6,501 bases of DNA from a virus. Lineage: Duplodnaviria > Heunggongvirae > Uroviricota > Caudoviricetes. The stretch lies in the IMG/VR virus record IMGVR_UViG_2663762992_000004. One strand, written 5' to 3'. Of the stretch, positions 1 to 6,501 are shown piece after piece. The position numbers and the translations under genes were made by a program. How positions within the stretch are numbered: position 1 is the stretch's first letter; the number at the start of each line of letters is the position of its first letter. Under the pieces are notes generated by a model. That model was not told the origin of the DNA, did not search any database, and saw only the letters and a program-made list of their open reading frames with translations.

Positions 1-96
1 ATTTTCTCCAGATGCTCTGTATGGTCAATCAAGTATTGGATCATATGCATAATTAATCTTTTAATCAGTTAATAGAATAAAAACCTAGGTAAACAC
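1..96 (+). promoter_or_regulatory. AT-rich leader upstream of the DNA polymerase gene; probable promoter/5' UTR region, with no confident -35/-10 assignment
   Basis: Non-coding AT-rich stretch directly upstream of the 687-aa ORF. A weak Shine-Dalgarno-like AGGT lies about 8 nt before the ATG at 97, and a TAGAAT hexamer at 73..78 is a possible -10. Promoter elements were judged by eye only. Confidence 0.25.
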
Positions 97-2160
97 ATGT
101 CCAATATACTATGGGGCGACCTGGAAACCTATTGCGAAATCCCTATTACGAACGGTACCCATGCGTATGCCGAAGGCGTTGAAGTGATGCTTTTCGCATG
201 GGCTATCAACGACGGGCCAGTAAACGTGTGGGATATCACTGCCGGTGGTGGTATTCCACACGGCTTATACGAAGCAATCGCAGACCCTGAAACCCTGCTT
301 TATTTCCATAACTCTCACTTCGACCGCACCGTTCTGCGTTATGCAATGCCGCGACTGGCACCGCCAGTCGAACGTTGGCGCGACACGATGGTGCAGGCGC
401 TGGCGCACGGTCTCCCGGGGTCTCTGGGGGAACTCTGCGAAGTACTAGGCGTCCCGCAAGACAAAGCGAAGGACAAAGAAGGTAAAGCGCTGATCCAGCT
501 GTTCTGTAAGCCACGTCCGAAAAACAGCAAACTGCGTCGGGCCACCAGTAAAACCCATCCGGAAGAATGGCGGCGCTTTGTTGCTTACGCCGGACTGGAT
601 ATCGAAGCAATGCGTGAAGTCTATAAACGTCTGCCGAAGTGGAATTATCAGGGGACAGAGCTGGCGCTCTGGCATCGTGATCAGCAGATCAACGACCGGG
701 GCGTCTGCATGGACATGCAACTCGCGCGCGCTGCGATCGAAGCGGTAGACCAGGAGCAAAAGCGCCTGGCAAAGCGTACACAGGAAATGACTGATGGCGA
801 AGTGCAGGCAGCCACACAACGGGACGCGTTGATTAAGCACATCGTTGAATCCTACGGTGTGGAGCTACCAGACATGCAACGCAGTACCCTGGAACGTCGT
901 ATGGCCGACCCCGATTTATCATCTGCCGTGAAAGAACTGCTGGCTATCCGCCTGCAAGCCAGTACTACCAGCACCAGTAAATACAAGGCACTGATGAAAG
1001 GCGTAAGCCACGACGGGCGCTTACGCGGTACGCTACAGTTCTGCGGGGCGTCACGTACCGGTCGTTGGGCCGGACGGCTATTCCAGCCCCAGAACCTTCC
1101 CCGCCCTTCACTAAAACAGGAACAAATAGACGAAGGCATCGAAGCACTGAAAGCCGGATGTGCAGACCTGCTGTTTGACAATATCATGGAACTAACCAGT
1201 TCAGCGTTACGTGGCTGCATTATCGCGCCAACAGGCAAAAAACTAGTGGTAAGTGACTTGTCAAACATTGAAGGCCGTATGCTGGCATGGCTGGCGGGAG
1301 AAGAATGGAAACTGAATGCATTCAGAGAGTATGACGCTGGAACGGGTCCGGACTTATATAAACTGGCGTATGCAAAAGCTTTCGATATTGCACCAGATGA
1401 TGTTGATAAACACATGCGTCAGATCGGTAAAGTCATGGAACTCGGTCTGGGTTATGGAGGTGGTGTATCGGCTTTCATCACTTTTGCTCTGGTTTACGGT
1501 CTCGATCTCGACGAGCTGGCGAACGCCGCACTGCCAAACATTCCCCGCGATGTTATCCGCGAGGCAAAAAGCTGGTACGACGAATCGGTTAAGCGTAAGT
1601 CGACCTTTGGCCTGTCCGAGCGTGTATTCATCGCATGTGACTCGCTCAAGCGCCTGTGGCGCAGGGCGCACCCGGCGACCTGCGATTTCTGGTACGAGCT
1701 GGAGCGCACTGTCCGCACAGCAATCGCCACACCGCAAAAAACATTGTATTGCGGCTATCTTAAAATCCGACGTGATGGCGCGTGGCTGCGCATACAGCTA
1801 CCATCCGGACGCGCTGTATGCTACCCGTCTCCGGTTATCGAACAAGGGAATATCACCTACATGGGTGTTAACTCTTATTCGCGTAAATGGCAACGACTCA
1901 AAACCTACGGCGGAAAGCTGGTGGAGAACGTCACCCAGGCGGCCGCCCGCGACGTTCTAGCCAGAAACATGCCGCTGATCGAGGGTGCCGGTTACAGCAT
2001 TGTGCTAACGGTACACGACGAGGTGATCACCGAAGCACCAGACACAGAAGATTTCAACGATAAAGCGCTTTCCGCGCTTCTCTCCACTAACCCCGAATGG
2101 GCACCCGATATTCCGCTGAACGCTGGCGGCTTTGAGGCGTACCACTACAAAAAAGATTGA
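97..2160 (+). CDS. Family A (Pol I / T7-like) DNA polymerase with N-terminal 3'-5' proofreading exonuclease domain, phage type
   Basis: 687-aa ORF. Exo I motif D-x-E in the N-terminus ([10 protein letters not shown]). Polymerase motif A ([19 protein letters not shown]), motif B ([16 protein letters not shown]) and motif C ([11 protein letters not shown]) are present in canonical order. Long ORF with uniform codon usage and no competing frame. Confidence 0.92.
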
Positions 2161-2224
2161 TATAACTCACCTTATCGAGCTATGGCGACATGCTGAATTC
2201 GAGTAAATTAAAGGTACAATACTT

Positions 2225-2986
2225 ATGCAGGAACTAACTGAAATGCCGATCAACTATCCATACCCGAGAGAATCTTTTCCTGACTTTTTGAGGGAGTGTG
2301 GGTTCACCAATTTTTCCCACGAACAGCGTGAGACTTATGACTGCTATCGTTTAACGAATGGCGTAATTGTTAACCTTTACACCACCCGGACCATTCAGTT
2401 TCAAGGGAACCCTCAAGAACGTCCCAATGTTGAAACTGCAATAATGTCCCATTTAGGAACGCCCCCCACGGCAACACCACTAGCCGTAGAACAGCCATCT
2501 GAGCTTCCCAAAAAGATATTCATTGTTCACGGCCATGACCATACTGCAAAGGAACAACTTGAGCTAATCCTTCATAAACTTGGATTACCAGACCATTTCA
2601 TTTTGCAGAATACGGGAGGGACTGGACTCACCATTATTGAAGAGCTTGAACGTGAAATTGGGCAAGGACAAACTGCTACTCGTTTCGGGATTGTTCTTTT
2701 GACACCTGATGATATGGGATACTCAAAGCGCGCCGGTGAAGCAGAAATCCAACCCCGCGCAAGACAGAACGTTGTACTCGAGATGGGTATGCTTCTTTCG
2801 TCCTTAGGGCGCAGCAATGTAGCAATCCTTCAGAAACAGCACCTAGAACAGCCTTCTGATGCTAACGGGATTTTGTATCTGAATTTCAACGACCATGTAC
2901 GTGAAACAGTTCCTCGTCTAGTGCAACGGTTACAAAATTCTGGTTTCGAATTTACACAAGCTCAAATAGCTAACGCTTCCTCGTAA
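2225..2986 (+). CDS. Two-domain cargo protein: N-terminal domain of unknown function (~aa 1-78), Pro/Thr-rich linker, C-terminal TIR-like nucleotide-processing domain (~aa 96-235); candidate defence/abortive-infection effector
   Basis: 253-aa ORF with a weak AGGT Shine-Dalgarno-like element ~9 nt upstream. C-terminal domain shows the pattern KKIFIVHGHD ... IVLLTPDD ... PRARQNVVLEMGMLLSSLGRSNVAILQK, which I recognise as characteristic of the bacterial 'TIR-like' flavodoxin-fold family (Pfam PF10137-type) with a conserved Glu in NVVLEMG. GC is visibly lower than the flanking polymerase gene. The domain call is from motif recognition, not a profile search. Confidence 0.7.
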   Translation: MQELTEMPINYPYPRESFPDFLRECGFTNFSHEQRETYDCYRLTNGVIVNLYTTRTIQFQGNPQERPNVETAIMSHLGTPPTATPLAVEQPSELPKKIFIVHGHDHTAKEQLELILHKLGLPDHFILQNTGGTGLTIIEELEREIGQGQTATRFGIVLLTPDDMGYSKRAGEAEIQPRARQNVVLEMGMLLSSLGRSNVAILQKQHLEQPSDANGILYLNFNDHVRETVPRLVQRLQNSGFEFTQAQIANASS

Positions 2987-3010
2987 TTACCCCCTTATTG
3001 TTGATTACAA

Positions 3011-3036
3011 CCCTGCATTGCGGGGTTTTTTATTTG
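3011..3036 (+). terminator. Rho-independent terminator downstream of the TIR-like gene
   Basis: GC-rich hairpin CCCTGCATTGCGGGG (stem CCCTGC / GCGGGG with one G-U pair and a short loop) immediately followed by TTTTTTATTT, located 25 nt after the stop codon at 2986. Confidence 0.6.
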
Positions 3037-3050
3037 GGAATAAAAACCCT

Positions 3051-3185
3051 ATGTCATTTAAATACCGGGACAGTCCGCTTTATTACCGGACTGCACGGGA
3101 GGCTTTGCGCCTTGAACAGTCCAGCGGGTACGACCGGGCGATGCAGGTCTGGGCCAAAGCGAACGTCGGTTTGATTTTTGTCTGA
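3051..3185 (+). CDS. Possible small ORF (44 aa, MSFKYRDSPLYYRTAREALRLEQSSGYDRAMQVWAKANVGLIFV), hypothetical
   Basis: ATG at 3051 to TGA at 3183..3185, my own translation; it is below the size cut-off of the supplied ORF track. Codon usage is GC-rich like the phage backbone, but there is no clear Shine-Dalgarno sequence. It could instead be untranslated leader carrying a promoter for the downstream genes. Confidence 0.2.
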   Translation: MSFKYRDSPLYYRTAREALRLEQSSGYDRAMQVWAKANVGLIFV

Positions 3186-3221
3186 TGCAGAACATGCGCG
3201 AAAAGCGTAAGGAGGTGGACG

Positions 3222-3416
3222 ATGTCTAATATCGATAATAAAGGTTGGGGGTTCCCCGCCCTGTCGAAAAAAGCACATTTCTTTAATTCGGGGGAAGCCA
3301 TATCACTATGCGGAAAATGGATGTTCACAGGTATCAGGATTGACGAATGGCATGACCATCCTGAGAACTGCGCTATCTGCATGAAGAAACGCAAAAAGCA
3401 GGAAGGCGAAAGCTAA
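3222..3416 (+). CDS. Small hypothetical protein (64 aa) with a Cys/His cluster (C30, H44, H46, C50, C53); possible zinc-binding
   Basis: Strong Shine-Dalgarno AAGGAGG 7 nt upstream of the ATG at 3222. Its stop overlaps the start of the next gene (TAATG at 3414..3418), indicating translational coupling with the VRR-NUC gene. Confidence 0.6.
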   Translation: MSNIDNKGWGFPALSKKAHFFNSGEAISLCGKWMFTGIRIDEWHDHPENCAICMKKRKKQEGES

Positions 3417-3700
3417 TGGCCTATGAACGTGAAAACCTAATCGAAAAGCACCTCGTCGCTGAAGTAAAAAAGGCTGGCGGGGTTGCCTTTAAGTTCGTAT
3501 CTCCCGGTCTCCGCTCGGTACCAGATCGCATTGTTCTGCTACCCGGCGGTCGCATCGTCTTTGTCGAATGCAAAGCACCAGGCAAACCACCACGACCTGA
3601 TCAGTTGCGCGAGCATGAACGTCTGCGAAAACTGGGCTTTACCGTGGTAGTACTGGATAGTAAGGAGCTTTCATGTATATTAGGCAAAAAATTACAATAG
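3416..3700 (+). CDS. VRR-NUC domain nuclease (PD-(D/E)xK superfamily), phage-associated
   Basis: 94-aa ORF with the pattern PDRIVLLPGGRIVFVECKAPGKPPRPDQLREHERLRKLGF, typical of VRR-NUC proteins (D ... E-x-K catalytic core followed by a conserved Q/E-rich helix). It is translationally coupled to the upstream small ORF. The last ~15 codons become AT-rich, suggesting the native 3' end was remodelled by the adjacent insertion. Confidence 0.82.
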   Translation: MAYERENLIEKHLVAEVKKAGGVAFKFVSPGLRSVPDRIVLLPGGRIVFVECKAPGKPPRPDQLREHERLRKLGFTVVVLDSKELSCILGKKLQ

Positions 3701-3715
3701 GAGTCTGTGTAAGCT

Positions 3716-4633
3716 ATGGCTAAGCAACAAACGAAAGAAATAAACCAAGATGATGTAAAAGACAACAAAAATATGCCACCTCATATATGCGGCATTATTA
3801 TGCCAATTGCGGACATAGAAGGTTATCCCACTGGACATTGGAGAAATGTTCATGACATTATTTGTGAAGCATCAAATGATGCCGGATTCAAGGCAAATTT
3901 GGTAAGTTCAGATGATGATGTTGCAGTAATACAAAAACGAATTGTTCAAAATCTTTATGAAAACCCCATAGTTGTTTGCGATATAAGTGCTCGAAACGCT
4001 AATGTAATGTTTGAATTAGGAATGCGTCTCGCATTTGACAAACCGACCGTAATTATTAAGGACGAGCGCACTCCTTATAGCTTTGACATTTCATCAATTG
4101 AACATTTAGAGTACCCTTCGGATTTAAGATACCAATCAATCAATTTATTCAAAGAAAGACTTGCGAGCAAGATAAAAGAAACATATTTAAAGTCAGTAAC
4201 TGATCCTGAATACACAACATTCCTCAAACATTTTGGCACTTTCAAAGTTGCACAACTAGACCAGAAAGAAGTATCAGAAACTGAGTATCTGGCATCTGAG
4301 ATTAAAGATATCAAATCATTATTGATATCTCTTAGGGCAACAGCAACGACAAAATCCAGATTTTTCGACTCACCGAAAAATTACTCGCAGCAGGAAATTG
4401 ACAACTCTGTAGATATTATTAAAAATGGAGTTGCCAGTTATACTATAAGGAGTGAAGGATTTAGTATATCAAAATCAGCACTAGAAAAGTTACGCCAAAG
4501 ACTACACAACGCAGGATTTCAAGTCGAGCAAATAGTATTGACAGGAAAAGAAGTAATTATTCATCTGTCATCACCTTTAATAAATGAAGAAGAAAATATT
4601 TTTAAAGATGCAATAGTAACAGCACTATTATAA
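3716..4633 (+). CDS. AT-rich cargo protein: N-terminal nucleoside 2-deoxyribosyltransferase-like / TIR-like flavodoxin-fold domain (~aa 24-116) plus C-terminal region of unknown function (~aa 120-305); candidate defence or counter-defence effector
   Basis: 305-aa ORF with AGGAG Shine-Dalgarno ~8 nt upstream. N-terminal pattern ICGIIMPIADIEGYP ... NPIVVCDISARNANVMFELGMRLAFDKPTVIIKD matches the D...N-x-V-x-F-E-x-G...K-P signature of nucleoside 2-deoxyribosyltransferase-like domains, with Glu100 as the putative catalytic nucleophile. GC is markedly lower than the neighbouring genes, and Lys/Asn/Ile-rich codon usage points to foreign origin. Domain call is by motif only. Confidence 0.7.
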   Translation: MAKQQTKEINQDDVKDNKNMPPHICGIIMPIADIEGYPTGHWRNVHDIICEASNDAGFKANLVSSDDDVAVIQKRIVQNLYENPIVVCDISARNANVMFELGMRLAFDKPTVIIKDERTPYSFDISSIEHLEYPSDLRYQSINLFKERLASKIKETYLKSVTDPEYTTFLKHFGTFKVAQLDQKEVSETEYLASEIKDIKSLLISLRATATTKSRFFDSPKNYSQQEIDNSVDIIKNGVASYTIRSEGFSISKSALEKLRQRLHNAGFQVEQIVLTGKEVIIHLSSPLINEEENIFKDAIVTALL

Positions 4634-4645
4634 ATAACATTTTTA

Positions 4646-4680
4646 AAACAACAAAAGGTCTAAATTGGCCTTTTGTTGTT
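4646..4680 (+). terminator. Intrinsic terminator-like hairpin downstream of the AT-rich cargo gene
   Basis: Perfect 12-bp inverted repeat AACAACAAAAGG (4646..4657) / CCTTTTGTTGTT (4668..4679) around a 10-nt loop. The 3' arm is itself T-rich and is followed directly by the helicase Shine-Dalgarno TAGGAG. The AT-rich stem means it may act as a weak or bidirectional terminator, or as an insertion scar. Confidence 0.5.
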
Positions 4681-4695
4681 TAGGAGCCATATTAT

Positions 4696-6090
4696 ATGCC
4701 CCCAAAATATATACCTCGCCCCTACCAAGTTCTCATTATCAACCACGAAACCGAAACCCTGCGCGGCAACATCTGGGCGGGGATGGGAATGGGTAAAACC
4801 GTGGCAACGCTCACTGCGCTGGAAGATCTCTTTATGGCAGGGGCAGAAACATGCCCCGCACTGGTCCTCGCGCCGCTGCGCGTGGCTGCCAGCACATGGC
4901 CGGATGAAGCACTGAAGTGGGGACATTTGCGCAATATCGAGGTGCAGCCAATTATTGGTAATGCCAAAGCGCGCTCTATGGCGCTGACGAACAGCAACGC
5001 AAGCGTGTTCACCATCAACTACGATAACCTTGTCTGGCTGATTGAAGAATTGGGAGAACGATGGCCGTTCGGTACTGTCATTCCAGATGAAAGCACCCGG
5101 CTAAAATCCTTCCGGCTGCGCGGTGGTGGTAAGCGCGCGGCGGCGCTGGGCAAAGTGGCGCATAAGTATGTCCGGCGCTGGATAAATCTCACCGGTACGC
5201 CAGCACCGAACGGCCTGGTAGATTTGTGGGGACAATCGTGGTTTGTGGACCAGGGGCAACGTCTCGGGCGCACTTACGGCGCGTTTACCTCACGCTGGTT
5301 CAACTCGATACAGTTTCCGGGGCAGAGCTGGACCAAACTGGAGCCTTTTGCTCACTCACAGGGTGAAATACAGCGAGCGTTAGCCGATGTAACCCTCTCG
5401 CTGGATGCGGCCGACTGGTTCGATATCAAAGACCCCATCCATAACGTAATCCGCGTGGATATGCCACCGAAGGCCCGTCAGCAGTATCGTGAAATGGAAA
5501 AGGAAATGTTCCTCGAGCTGAATGGCGAAGGCATCGAAGCACCGAACGCCGCGGCAAAGACACTGAAGTGTCTGCAAATCGCCAGCGGCGCAGTATACAC
5601 AGATGACACCGGAAGTTGGTCAGAACTGCATGACACCAAACTACAGGCGCTGGACAGCATACTGACCGAAGCAGCTGGCGCACCTGTGCTGGTTGCTTAT
5701 CACTGGAAACACGATCTTGAACGCTTGCTTAAAGCATTCCCTCGCGGTCGTCACCTCGACCAGGATCCACAGACACTGCGCGACTGGAATTCCGGAAAGA
5801 TTCCTGTTCTCTTTGCACACCCAGCCAGCGCGGGCCACGGCCTGAACATGCAGGACGGCGGAAATATACTGGTATTTTTCTCACACTGGTGGGACCTGGA
5901 GCAATATCAGCAAATTATTGAACGTATCGGCCCCACCAGGCAGATACAGGCCGGACACAATCGTCCGGTATTTATTCACCACATTATTGCTGCCGACACT
6001 ATGGATGAAATGGTGATGGAGCGGCGCAACTCAAAACGAACAGTGCAGGACATCCTGCTCGATGCCATGAAAAAGAGAGGTATAGCATGA
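4696..6090 (+). CDS. SNF2-family (DEAD/DEAH-like superfamily 2) helicase/ATPase, phage replication type
   Basis: 464-aa ORF with Walker A AGMGMGKT, motif II DESTRLK (DExx-type) and motif III LTGTP in the N-terminal RecA-like lobe, and a C-terminal helicase lobe (HPASAGHGLNMQDGGNILVFFSHWWDLEQYQQIIERIGPTRQ). TAGGAG Shine-Dalgarno 8 nt upstream. The polymerase / VRR-NUC / SNF2 arrangement is common in phage replication modules. Confidence 0.9.
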   Translation: MPPKYIPRPYQVLIINHETETLRGNIWAGMGMGKTVATLTALEDLFMAGAETCPALVLAPLRVAASTWPDEALKWGHLRNIEVQPIIGNAKARSMALTNSNASVFTINYDNLVWLIEELGERWPFGTVIPDESTRLKSFRLRGGGKRAAALGKVAHKYVRRWINLTGTPAPNGLVDLWGQSWFVDQGQRLGRTYGAFTSRWFNSIQFPGQSWTKLEPFAHSQGEIQRALADVTLSLDAADWFDIKDPIHNVIRVDMPPKARQQYREMEKEMFLELNGEGIEAPNAAAKTLKCLQIASGAVYTDDTGSWSELHDTKLQALDSILTEAAGAPVLVAYHWKHDLERLLKAFPRGRHLDQDPQTLRDWNSGKIPVLFAHPASAGHGLNMQDGGNILVFFSHWWDLEQYQQIIERIGPTRQIQAGHNRPVFIHHIIAADTMDEMVMERRNSKRTVQDILLDAMKKRGIA

Positions 6091-6287
6091 GCGAGAAACC
6101 CGACGATTTACTCACCCCGGATGAAGTATGCCAAAAGTTAGGTATTACACAGAAAACGCTATGTGAGTGGAATATTAAGCATCGTCATCGGGCTATCCTG
6201 GCACCAATTCGTTTCAGTGCAAAAGTAGTTCGTTATGAGCGCCGAAATATCGACGCTTTTATTCAAAAATGTCGCAGCCAGTATTAA
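6087..6287 (+). CDS. Small helix-turn-helix DNA-binding protein, AlpA/excisionase-like (HTH_17-type) regulator
   Basis: 66-aa ORF whose ATG overlaps the helicase stop (ATGA at 6087..6090), indicating translational coupling. LTPDEVCQKLGITQKTLCEW is a helix-turn-helix, followed by VRYERRNIDAFI, resembling the conserved C-terminal strand/helix of AlpA/Xis-like proteins. Confidence 0.65.
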   Translation: MSEKPDDLLTPDEVCQKLGITQKTLCEWNIKHRHRAILAPIRFSAKVVRYERRNIDAFIQKCRSQY

Positions 6288-6501
6288 CCTCGCCGCCGTA
6301 GCAATGCCACCTGCGCAAGTATGCTCCGCTCGTGAGCCTCGAAAGCTTCGCGCTTCAACGCAATCTCTTCCTGTAAAATCTCATCAGAAAAGTCGTAATG
6401 TTCTGCCATCGGGTCATCTGACTTGCTGGAGTGGTGNNGGCNNNGGNNGAAACCGGCGAAGAGCCGCAGACCACGCGAGTATTGCGGGTAAAACTGCAAA
6501 C
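6284..6501 (-). CDS. Hypothetical protein, 3' (C-terminal) part only; the gene probably continues beyond the window end
   Basis: Minus-strand ORF open to the window edge; the initial M in the supplied translation is probably an artefact of truncation. It contains ambiguous bases (N at 6437-6438, 6442-6444, 6447-6448). Its stop overlaps the stop of the + strand HTH gene (convergent, tail-to-tail). No recognisable domain in ...MAEHYDFSDEILQEEIALKREAFEAHERSILAQVALLRRRG. Confidence 0.35.
   Translation of the reverse strand, partial: LQFYPQYSRGLRLFAGFXXXXHHSSKSDDPMAEHYDFSDEILQEEIALKREAFEAHERSILAQVALLRRRG

Follow-up and report, generated by a model that had tools for sequence, protein, structure and literature searches.

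Introduction

The closest described relatives of the locus treated here are TIR-STING proteins with a CAP12-type TIR domain. In SfSTING, R78 and N80 bind the ribose and phosphate of NAD, E84 is catalytic, and D110 acts in trans by completing the active site of the dimer mate (PMC9402430). A second point of reference is provided by the PDC systems of PADLOC, a set of 145 candidates predicted by "guilt by embedding" (bioRxiv 10.1101/2024.01.29.577857). Here we analyze two cargo genes, ORF1 and ORF2 (ORF, open reading frame), found in a Caudoviricetes sequence deposited as IMG/VR virus record IMGVR_UViG_2663762992_000004; the whole stretch of DNA, 6,501 nucleotides long, is referred to as the window. 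The two genes are as follows:

2225..2986, plus strand: ORF1, 253 aa, RefSeq WP_001551506.1 ("TIR domain-containing protein")
3716..4633, plus strand: ORF2, 305 aa, RefSeq WP_001551510.1 ("hypothetical protein")

Judging from sequence and predicted structure, we consider it probable, with some reserve, that ORF1 and ORF2 encode two stand-alone sensor-effector N-glycosidases of the TIR/NDT superfamily (NDT, nucleoside 2-deoxyribosyltransferase), carried as independent cargo rather than as a pair, which would act by abortive infection or by exclusion of other phages. Both proteins consist of a conserved TIR-superfamily domain (72-74% identity) and a fast-diverging second domain (14-31% identity), joined in opposite order.

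A shared putative active-site signature in two related folds

An initial annotation of this locus had read a common putative catalytic motif, R-x-N-V-x-x-E-x-G-M, in both proteins, and its residues and coordinates proved exact (ORF1 aa 180-188, RQNVVLEMG, nt 2762-2788; ORF2 aa 94-102, NANVMFELG, nt 3995-4021). The N-V-x-x-E-x-G-M part is indeed common to the two proteins, but the arginine fits ORF1 only (R180-Q-N182-V). ORF2 reads R93-N94-A95-N96-V97, with the arginine at -3, the family-invariant Asn94 at -2, and either R or K at position 93 among family members. The arginine of ORF2 is therefore one residue out of register, and the common core is reduced to N-V-x-x-E-x-G-M. A second collinear motif, H-L-E-x-P-S-D, is also common to ORF1 and ORF2. 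By alignment, the first motif appears to be the active-site signature of the TIR/NDT superfamily at the start of helix C, and the second would carry the trans-acting Asp of CAP12-type TIRs. The residues of the motif are invariant within the ORF1 family and within the ORF2 family.

The remaining particulars of the initial annotation agreed with our results as well. The short hydrophobic strands described after the motif, NVAILQK in ORF1 and PTVIIKD in ORF2, correspond to predicted beta strands (E199-203 and E111-116, respectively), and the catalytic domain does lie at opposite ends of the two proteins, C-terminal in ORF1 and N-terminal in ORF2. The guanine-plus-cytosine (GC) content differs as claimed, being 0.451 in ORF1 and 0.344 in ORF2 against about 0.54 in the backbone genes polA and SNF2, and the separation given as 700 bp is a gap of 729 bp.

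As raw sequence, the motif window is not above chance, since 12-residue windows with 6 identities are typical of shuffled sequences. The best 12-residue window between the two proteins, ILQKQHLEQPSD against ISSIEHLEYPSD, has 7/12 identities, a score reached by 12 of 300 shuffles, and sits 24 to 34 residues downstream of the N-V-x-x-E-x-G-M motif. BLASTP of ORF1 against ORF2 returned the motif segment with an E-value of 0.042. When NV..E.G is taken as a pre-specified active-site pattern of one family, it occurs in 0.27% of ORF2 shuffles; NV..E.G followed by P[ST]D 15-50 residues downstream occurs in 2.5e-5 of them, a figure that is partly post hoc because the downstream pattern was picked after the data had been seen. 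The best BLASTP segment of all, ORF1 RETVPRLVQRLQNSGFEFTQ against ORF2 KSALEKLRQRLHNAGFQVEQ (E 0.01), was dismissed as non-equivalent, because it pairs the last helix of the ORF1 TIR domain with the hypervariable C-terminal domain of ORF2, which is missing from most homologs.

A profile-profile comparison of the two domains, which had been proposed as a check of the motif, yielded an E-value of 3e-4 with NVxxExGM and HLExPSD in one collinear match. A permissive hhalign run aligned 105 columns with the structural elements in the same order; a global hhalign alignment of the two domains was meaningless, the comparison being informative only in local or permissive modes. The expectation that the two domains share a fold was borne out at the level of fold class, both being of a TIR/NDT-like flavodoxin fold with the motif at an equivalent place, namely the loop that follows strand 3 together with the first part of helix C. 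In the two predicted models the motif opens helix C (H181-194 in ORF1 and H95-105 in ORF2), after strand 3 and before strand 4, and HLExPSD comes after strand 5. The equivalence of the motifs was taken from the profile alignment together with the order of secondary-structure elements. The initial annotation had gone on to suggest that the two proteins share the same chemistry; this can be retained at the level of a putative N-glycosidase with a Glu on helix C, and no further. We thus read the two enzyme domains as probable distant relatives which share the active-site signature of NAD- or nucleotide-cleaving enzymes.

The chance-level score of the raw motif window would also be expected if the likeness were coincidental, with the ORF2 N-terminal domain being a generic flavodoxin/CheY-like fold unrelated to TIR or NDT proteins and its Glu non-catalytic. 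We give this explanation a very slim chance, as two invariant collinear motifs and concordant folds make pure coincidence unlikely.

ORF1 is a CAP12/Pycsar-type TIR protein

The following features were identified in ORF1:

2225..2458, plus strand: N-terminal domain (aa 1-78), alpha-4beta-alpha; H15-24, E30-61 and H66-77 in the model, pLDDT >90
2513..2890, plus strand: CAP12/Pycsar-type TIR domain (aa 97-222), whose last helix extends to about aa 238
2762..2791, plus strand: active-site motif R180-Q-N182-V-V-L-E186-M-G188-M189 at the start of helix C, invariant in the family
2852..2860, plus strand: P210-S211-D212 in the loop after strand 5 (DD loop), invariant in the family

ORF1 is a canonical CAP12/Pycsar-type TIR protein fused to an N-terminal domain like that of RnlA. 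It matches Pfam PF10137 (CAP12/Pycsar TIR) above the gathering threshold (E 2.9e-31, 108.4 bits, cutoff 24.7), with aa 97-222 covering positions 1-118 of the 119 in the hidden Markov model, and all 36 of the 36 family members match the same Pfam family. The PADLOC PDC-S35 profile PDLC05003 is matched with an E-value of 1.2e-108 (aa 10-253 on positions 3-245 of 245), and ORF1 also matches phrog_16442. A literature search on PDC-S35, the RefSeq accessions of the ORFs, the phage names, the PHROG identifiers and DUF4406 returned nothing informative.

Alignment of the ORF1 family profile to solved CAP12 TIR-STING and PycTIR chains (7un8/9lmq) placed R180, N182 and E186 on R78, N80 and E84 of SfSTING (within R-D-N-V-V-F-E-F-G), and P210-S-D212 on SfSTING P-T-D110; the numbering of the PDB chain is offset by 8 from SfSTING residue numbering, which was confirmed by counting. 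In the AF2 model only, a CC-loop beta hairpin as in CAP12 TIRs is formed between strand 3 and helix C (E163-165 and E176-178). We would like to note that ORF1 contains a 16-nt direct repeat (2487-2502 and 2844-2859, 15/16 identical), of which the first copy encodes V-E-Q-P-S-E of the interdomain linker and the second L-E-Q-P-S-D of the DD loop of the TIR domain, the latter including the Asp equivalent to D110. This repeat is probably due to chance.

The N-terminal domain of ORF1 weakly resembles the N-terminal domain of RnlA/LsoA. PF15935 (RnlA_toxin) was found in 11 of the 36 family members (best E 8.5e-4), LsoA (5hy3) was matched by the ORF1 profile with an E-value of 0.12, and three of the 36 members weakly match DUF3378, the N-terminal domain of RNase HIII. 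The likeness to RnlA/LsoA and RNase HIII hints that the TIR domain is joined to a module which senses nucleic acids. Among ORF1 homologs, mean identity is 31% in the N-terminal domain versus 74% in the TIR domain. A second E. coli allele in the ORF1 slot, 71% identical over the whole protein, is near-identical to ORF1 in the TIR region (aa 96-253) and far more divergent in the N-terminal region. On this pattern of divergence we regard the N-terminal domain as a fast-diverging putative sensor.

ORF2 represents a divergent TIR/NDT-like family

The following features were identified in ORF2:

3785..4210, plus strand: N-terminal TIR/NDT-like domain (aa 24-165), alternating strands and helices; model confidence medium
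3995..4024, plus strand: motif N94-A-N96-V97-M-F-E100-L-G102-M103 at the start of helix C
4115..4123, plus strand: P134-S135-D136 within H-L-E-Y-P-S-D, after strand 5; P134 and D136 invariant in the family
4211..4345, plus strand: conserved helical linker (aa 166-210), 55% mean identity; long amphipathic helix at 188-211 in the model
4397..4630, plus strand: hypervariable C-terminal alpha/beta domain (aa 228-305); beta-beta-alpha-beta-beta-alpha in the model, pLDDT 92-97

No Pfam or NCBIfam family is matched by ORF2 above threshold, though it does match phrog_3634. Against PF10137 it scores 16.2 bits (cutoff 24.7, E 0.011) over aa 44-112 only, and 11 of the 37 family members match this Pfam family, all of them below threshold. 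Against PF05014 (Nuc_deoxyrib_tr) it scores 13.2 bits versus a cutoff of 28.8, with weak matches in 35 of the 37 members (best E 0.0041). The PADLOC CBASS "Effector TIR" profile PDLC00733, in turn, is matched by all 37 (best E 9.3e-9); this generic profile was the only PADLOC match, as neither PDC-S35, any other PDC profile, nor any system-level PADLOC model was returned for ORF2.

Residues N94, N96, V97, M98, E100, L101 and G102 are invariant in the ORF2 family. The hhalign comparison places N96, E100 and G102 of ORF2 on N182, E186 and G188 of ORF1, and H-L-E-Y-P-S-D of ORF2 on H-L-E-Q-P-S-D of ORF1. As the P-S-D of ORF2 aligns to that of ORF1 and the latter to SfSTING, D136 corresponds by transitive alignment to D110. 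Judging by profile alignment and the order of secondary-structure elements, the Glu motif and the DD-loop Asp that mark CAP12 TIRs may be represented by invariant residues (N96/E100/G102 and P134-S-D136), but the place of R78 is taken by Asn94. The CC-loop hairpin is absent, the CC loop of ORF2 having only five residues (aa 90-94) between strand E85-89 and helix H95-105, and relative to CAP12 TIRs ORF2 has an insert of 11 residues between strands 4 and 5.

When the profile of the ORF2 N-terminal domain was searched against PDB chains, NDT-superfamily chains were the only ones retrieved within E<10, and these matches are sub-significant. In this alignment, E100 is paired with the Glu within V-G-Y-E-L-G of DNPH1, a Glu which we take to be the catalytic residue of that enzyme. 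The second acidic residue of DNPH1 (the Asp of I-H-E-Q-D-L) is unmatched, the residue of ORF2 aligned to it, weakly, being Ile76. ORF2 does agree with the NDT family in its fold and in having a putative catalytic Glu where the helix that follows strand 3 begins. A search of PDB sequences with the full-length ORF2-family profile returned irrelevant matches. We read the ORF2 N-terminal domain as a genuine but divergent member of the TIR/NDT superfamily, which bears TIR-like signatures on an NDT-like scaffold and belongs to neither Pfam family.

The ORF2 family is large. A word-indexed search retrieved 4466 homologs, and a profile search of a 1.84-billion-protein set retrieved 9868 representatives at 50% identity (E<=1e-3); among the matches listed, which are strong family members only, there were no distant "bridge" sequences to annotated TIR or NDT families. 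The N-terminal domain is about 60-65% identical across Proteobacteria, Bacteroidota, Acidobacteriota, Verrucomicrobiota, Lentisphaerota, Nitrospinota and Desulfobacterota, with the C-terminal third unalignable, and such conservation is unusually strong for a sporadic accessory gene without a Pfam model. Mean identity among homologs is 14% over aa 211-305 versus 72% in the N-terminal domain, and most tblastn alignments of ORF2 in 80 species stop at residues 200-220. From this contrast the C-terminal domain is a putative sensor or specificity domain. The helical linker may have a role in oligomerization.

Two cargo slots in a prophage replication module

Bases 1-6090 of the window are 100% identical to the induced E. 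coli phages vB_EcoM-689R2 and 611R5 and 99.9% identical to 606R2, and prophages of identical sequence occur in 24 complete E. coli genomes. In complete genomes the element is integrated, adjoining yfhL. We therefore describe the window as a replication module, that of a temperate phage integrated beside yfhL in E. coli, with at least two variable cargo slots. Slot A follows the DNA polymerase and slot B lies between the VRR-NUC nuclease and the SNF2 helicase; each holds a low-GC single-gene cassette of independent origin. Apart from ORF1 and ORF2, the features of the window are the following:

97..2160, plus strand: family A DNA polymerase (Pfam DNA_pol_A, RefSeq annotation), left anchor of slot A
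3009..3037, plus strand: terminator-like hairpin with T-run just 3' of ORF1, from a consensus scan only, with no functional evidence
3018-3185, plus strand: frameshifted ANR regulator (NCBIfam ANR_neg_reg, RefSeq), backbone between the cargo slots
3222-3416, plus strand: 64-aa hypothetical protein (RefSeq), backbone between the cargo slots
3416-3700, plus strand: VRR-NUC/PDDEXK nuclease (Pfam VRR_NUC, weak; RefSeq), backbone between the cargo slots
4647..4680, plus strand: AT-rich 12-bp hairpin between ORF2 and the SNF2 helicase, read from the sequence
4696..6090, plus strand: SNF2-type helicase (Pfam SNF2-rel_dom), right anchor of slot B, present in 159 E. coli genomes
6087-6287: HTH protein, next in gene order after the SNF2 helicase
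last in the window, minus strand: 3' end of the integrase gene

The two hairpins are possible 3' boundaries of the cassettes, that at 3009..3037 for ORF1 and that at 4647..4680 for ORF2; the latter was missed by the terminator scan because it lacks a clean T-run. The former overlaps the start of the ANR gene, which is annotated as frameshifted (a pseudogene) in RefSeq prophage copies, and sister prophages have an intact ANR of 71-73 aa. A promoter scan of the window found sites no more numerous than expected by chance, Rfam gave no match, and the short direct and inverted repeats between 2100 and 4750 look like chance. Ambiguous bases (N) occur at 6438-6449, inside the minus-strand integrase 3' end, and the phage GenBank records match bases 1-6090 only; the window evidently derives from another assembly.

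In three sister prophages a "putative nucleotide modification protein" of the Nmad5 family is encoded just upstream of the polymerase (L018:1-502, L019:1-529 and L020:1-472, our locus numbers). Given these Nmad5 genes near the polymerase and the Dcm or SAM methyltransferases in some cargo slots, the module may be tied to DNA modification in some lineages.

ORF1 and ORF2 are independent cargo

The initial annotation had suggested that the two genes were independently acquired, and this is upheld by their different GC contents, their separate variable slots and the sister prophages that have one gene only. Among complete E. coli genomes, ORF2 was found in 24, ORF1 in 47, and the prophage family, as tracked by SNF2, in 159. 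In a sister prophage of K. aerogenes, slot B holds an ORF2 of 75% identity and no TIR gene follows the polymerase; in one of Serratia, slot A holds an ORF1 of 70% identity and ORF2 is missing. Other members of the prophage family keep ORF1 while the VRR-NUC/SNF2 slot holds Arc and Rha regulators, and further sister prophages, without either gene, hold Dcm methylases, SAM methyltransferases, DUF4406 or hypothetical genes.

The alternative that ORF1 and ORF2 form a functional pair, as producer and effector or as defense and anti-defense, had also been raised; such a pair could be Thoeris-like or one of toxin and antidote, and it is suggested by the presence of both genes in one element, on the same strand, 729 bp apart and with the same active-site signature. 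In E. coli, each copy of ORF2 does come with ORF1. This co-occurrence, however, stems from one prophage lineage, in which the 24 copies of ORF2 are at least 99% identical and all but one of them identical, and ORF1 is found without ORF2 in at least 13 E. coli genomes as well as in Serratia. Conversely, ORF2 occurs without ORF1 in K. aerogenes and at 80 of 80 loci from other species, where tblastn detected no ORF1-like sequence near the ORF2 relative (80 species, 10 kb on each side). Three backbone genes and the terminator-like hairpin lie between the two genes, and no recognizable signal-binding domain (SLOG, Macro, SAVED, STING or cNMP-binding) was detected in ORF1 or ORF2 using Pfam and PADLOC profiles. 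Gene distribution thus largely refutes a pairing, and we hold it to be highly improbable; ORF1 and ORF2 are independent cargo and are not linked. Another suggestion, that the locus repeatedly captures this type of gene, is weakly supported by the several variable slots and by DUF4406 in two sister prophages, but most of what these slots contain is unrelated (Dcm methylases, Arc/Rha regulators and hypothetical proteins).

No conserved neighbor of the ORF2 family was found, in that no neighboring protein family occurs in more than six of the 80 loci. More distant relatives of ORF2 are stand-alone genes in three settings: lambdoid Klebsiella prophages, where they occupy the nin region, an integrative element of Pseudomonas, and an island of Aeromonas. 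Relatives of the ORF2 N-terminal domain in a phage collection all belong to temperate phages (of Klebsiella, Streptococcus, Staphylococcus, Dorea and Latilactobacillus). One of these, gp11 of Streptococcus phage SM1, is encoded on the same strand as the integrase, whereas the early genes on either side of it lie on the other strand. Relatives of ORF1 were found in an integrase-bearing island with an SMC/AAA ATPase gene. We count these settings, whose ecology is like that of defense genes, in favor of our reading. Separately, the lambdoid Klebsiella prophages with an ORF2 homolog also encode, near the lysis genes, a small protein with the Acb2/Tad1 hairpin domain (PF24729), which defines a family of sponges directed against CBASS and Thoeris (L006:14894-15130, L007:14894-15130 and L008:14156-14440).

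ORF2 is dispensable, because it is split into two coding sequences by a frameshift in the induced phage vB_EcoM-606R2 (L103:301-1222) and interrupted by IS1 near codon 48 in E. coli JNEC-KY203 (L104:301-1995), both being copies of the prophage that are otherwise near-identical.

Proposed mechanism and a lytic-cycle alternative

In the mechanism we propose, the variable domain of each protein would sense a cue of infection, and binding of this cue would drive oligomerization, by which a composite active site is assembled; as in TIR-STING, the Asp of one subunit would complete the active site of the next. The enzyme would then cleave NAD+ or, in the case of ORF2, possibly another nucleotide N-glycosidic bond, and this cleavage would lead to abortive infection or to the exclusion of competing phages, with the two genes acting independently. 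For the ORF2 family in particular we advance a more tentative proposal, which we hold with less confidence than the general reading: it may comprise stand-alone immune or counter-immune proteins, in which a TIR/NDT-intermediate N-glycosidase (catalytic E100, trans-acting D136) would be activated once the hypervariable C-terminal sensor drives oligomerization. Clustered at 50% identity, this undescribed family amounts to about 10^4 clusters, and its more distant relatives reach into the temperate phages of Firmicutes.

Several observations weigh against two host-protective sensor-effectors. Both genes are co-directional with the replication genes and follow them at short gaps (64 and 15 nt), an arrangement that may place their expression in lytic growth and not in the lysogen. 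PDC-S35, to which ORF1 is assigned, is a predicted PADLOC candidate and not an established system. Finally, hhalign gives the match between the two domains low probabilities (40% and 8%), owing to the limited diversity of both family alignments.

The main alternative, rather unlikely in our view, is that ORF2, and perhaps ORF1, is a lytic-cycle nucleotide N-hydrolase like NDT, DNPH1 or MilB, expressed with the replication module and having no host-protective function. Such an enzyme could reshape nucleotide pools, take part in DNA modification, or destroy the signaling nucleotides of host immunity as an anti-defense. The best structural and sequence matches of the ORF2 N-terminal domain are MilB, BlsM, DNPH1 and NDT, which fits this alternative, as do the weak PF05014 matches of 35 of the 37 family members. 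ORF2 starts 15 nt after VRR-NUC on the same strand, the gap to the preceding gene is 3 nt for its K. aerogenes counterpart, and promoter signals did not exceed chance; a DUF4406 protein of the NDT superfamily is present in the module of two sister prophages, and Nmad5 nucleotide-modification genes lie nearby in three of the sister prophages examined. Against this alternative, the ORF2 family stands alone in 80 unrelated contexts with no conserved replication or modification partner, its C-terminal domain is hypervariable in a way typical of recognition modules and not of metabolic enzymes, and every family member tested matches the CBASS TIR-effector profile. Moreover, ORF2 does not conserve the second catalytic residue of DNPH1, an Asp (a weak alignment puts Ile76 in its place), the induced phage 606R2 has a frameshifted ORF2, and the phages with ORF2 homologs are temperate ones only. 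We therefore continue to prefer two stand-alone sensor-effectors.

Significance of the two genes

ORF1 adds little that is new, as it is already annotated as a TIR protein of a PADLOC candidate type, and the presence of two TIR-like cargo genes in one prophage is no surprise. The more notable part is ORF2, a "hypothetical protein" that bears two active-site signatures of the oligomerization-activated CAP12-type TIR NADases on a fold like that of nucleotide N-hydrolases. The ORF2 family is large, taxonomically broad, horizontally spread and unannotated, and its architecture is that which a single-gene sensor-effector might have. Because a conserved enzyme domain is joined to a hypervariable domain in so large and widespread a family, the family is a concrete and cheaply testable candidate for a new single-gene module of phage defense or counter-defense. 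It may also be an evolutionary bridge between TIR and NDT enzymes; if our proposal is true, the family would be a new single-gene system between the TIR and NDT branches of the superfamily. The independent cargo slots in the replication module are, in addition, relevant to how the "moron" content of prophages is interpreted.

Comparison with known systems

No CD-NTase or cyclase is encoded in the window or in the roughly 4 kb that flank it on each side, and STING, SAVED and cNMP-binding domains are missing from both ORF1 and ORF2, so that neither protein is an effector of CBASS or Pycsar. Nor do the window and its flanks encode a ThsA-type SIR2/TM effector with a SLOG or Macro sensor, as would be expected for Thoeris. 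The Thoeris protein ThsB and SpbK of B. subtilis, a stand-alone TIR abortive-infection protein on a mobile element, belong to other TIR subfamilies than ORF1 and ORF2.

DUF4406 (PF14359), also of the NDT superfamily, occurs in the same replication module, between ANR and VRR-NUC, in the prophages of E. coli H10407 and CREC-544. It is a single-domain protein of 99 aa which is absent from the window and for which neither ORF1 nor ORF2 gave a sequence match. In these prophages (L017:2890-3189 in H10407 and L018:3177-3476 in CREC-544; PF14359 E 1e-33) it is a minimal NDT-superfamily protein with A-G-P and S-A-G-A-R-A-E-N-A (Glu) motifs, and so a third type of TIR/NDT-superfamily gene in the module. 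The matching place in the window, 3185-3416, is occupied by the unrelated 64-aa ORF.

ORF1 resembles the CAP12 proteins TIR-STING (SfSTING) and PycTIR in having the PF10137 domain, the Glu motif, the DD-loop Asp and, in the model only, the CC-loop hairpin, and it matches the single-gene candidate PDC-S35 from end to end, whereas ORF2 does not match PDC-S35. ORF2 differs from CAP12 TIRs in its sub-threshold score, the lack of the CC-loop hairpin, the Asn in place of Arg at -2 (the R78 equivalent) and the 11-residue insert between strands 4 and 5.

The NDT-superfamily N-glycosidases include the CMP hydrolases MilB and BlsM, DNPH1/Rcl and the nucleoside 2-deoxyribosyltransferases, and NDT-like retron effectors are also among their relatives. 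ORF2 falls below the threshold for PF05014 and does not conserve the Asp of DNPH1. The N-glycosidases of this superfamily, for their part, lack the TIR-type P-S-D motif and the hypervariable extra domain, both of which are present in ORF2.

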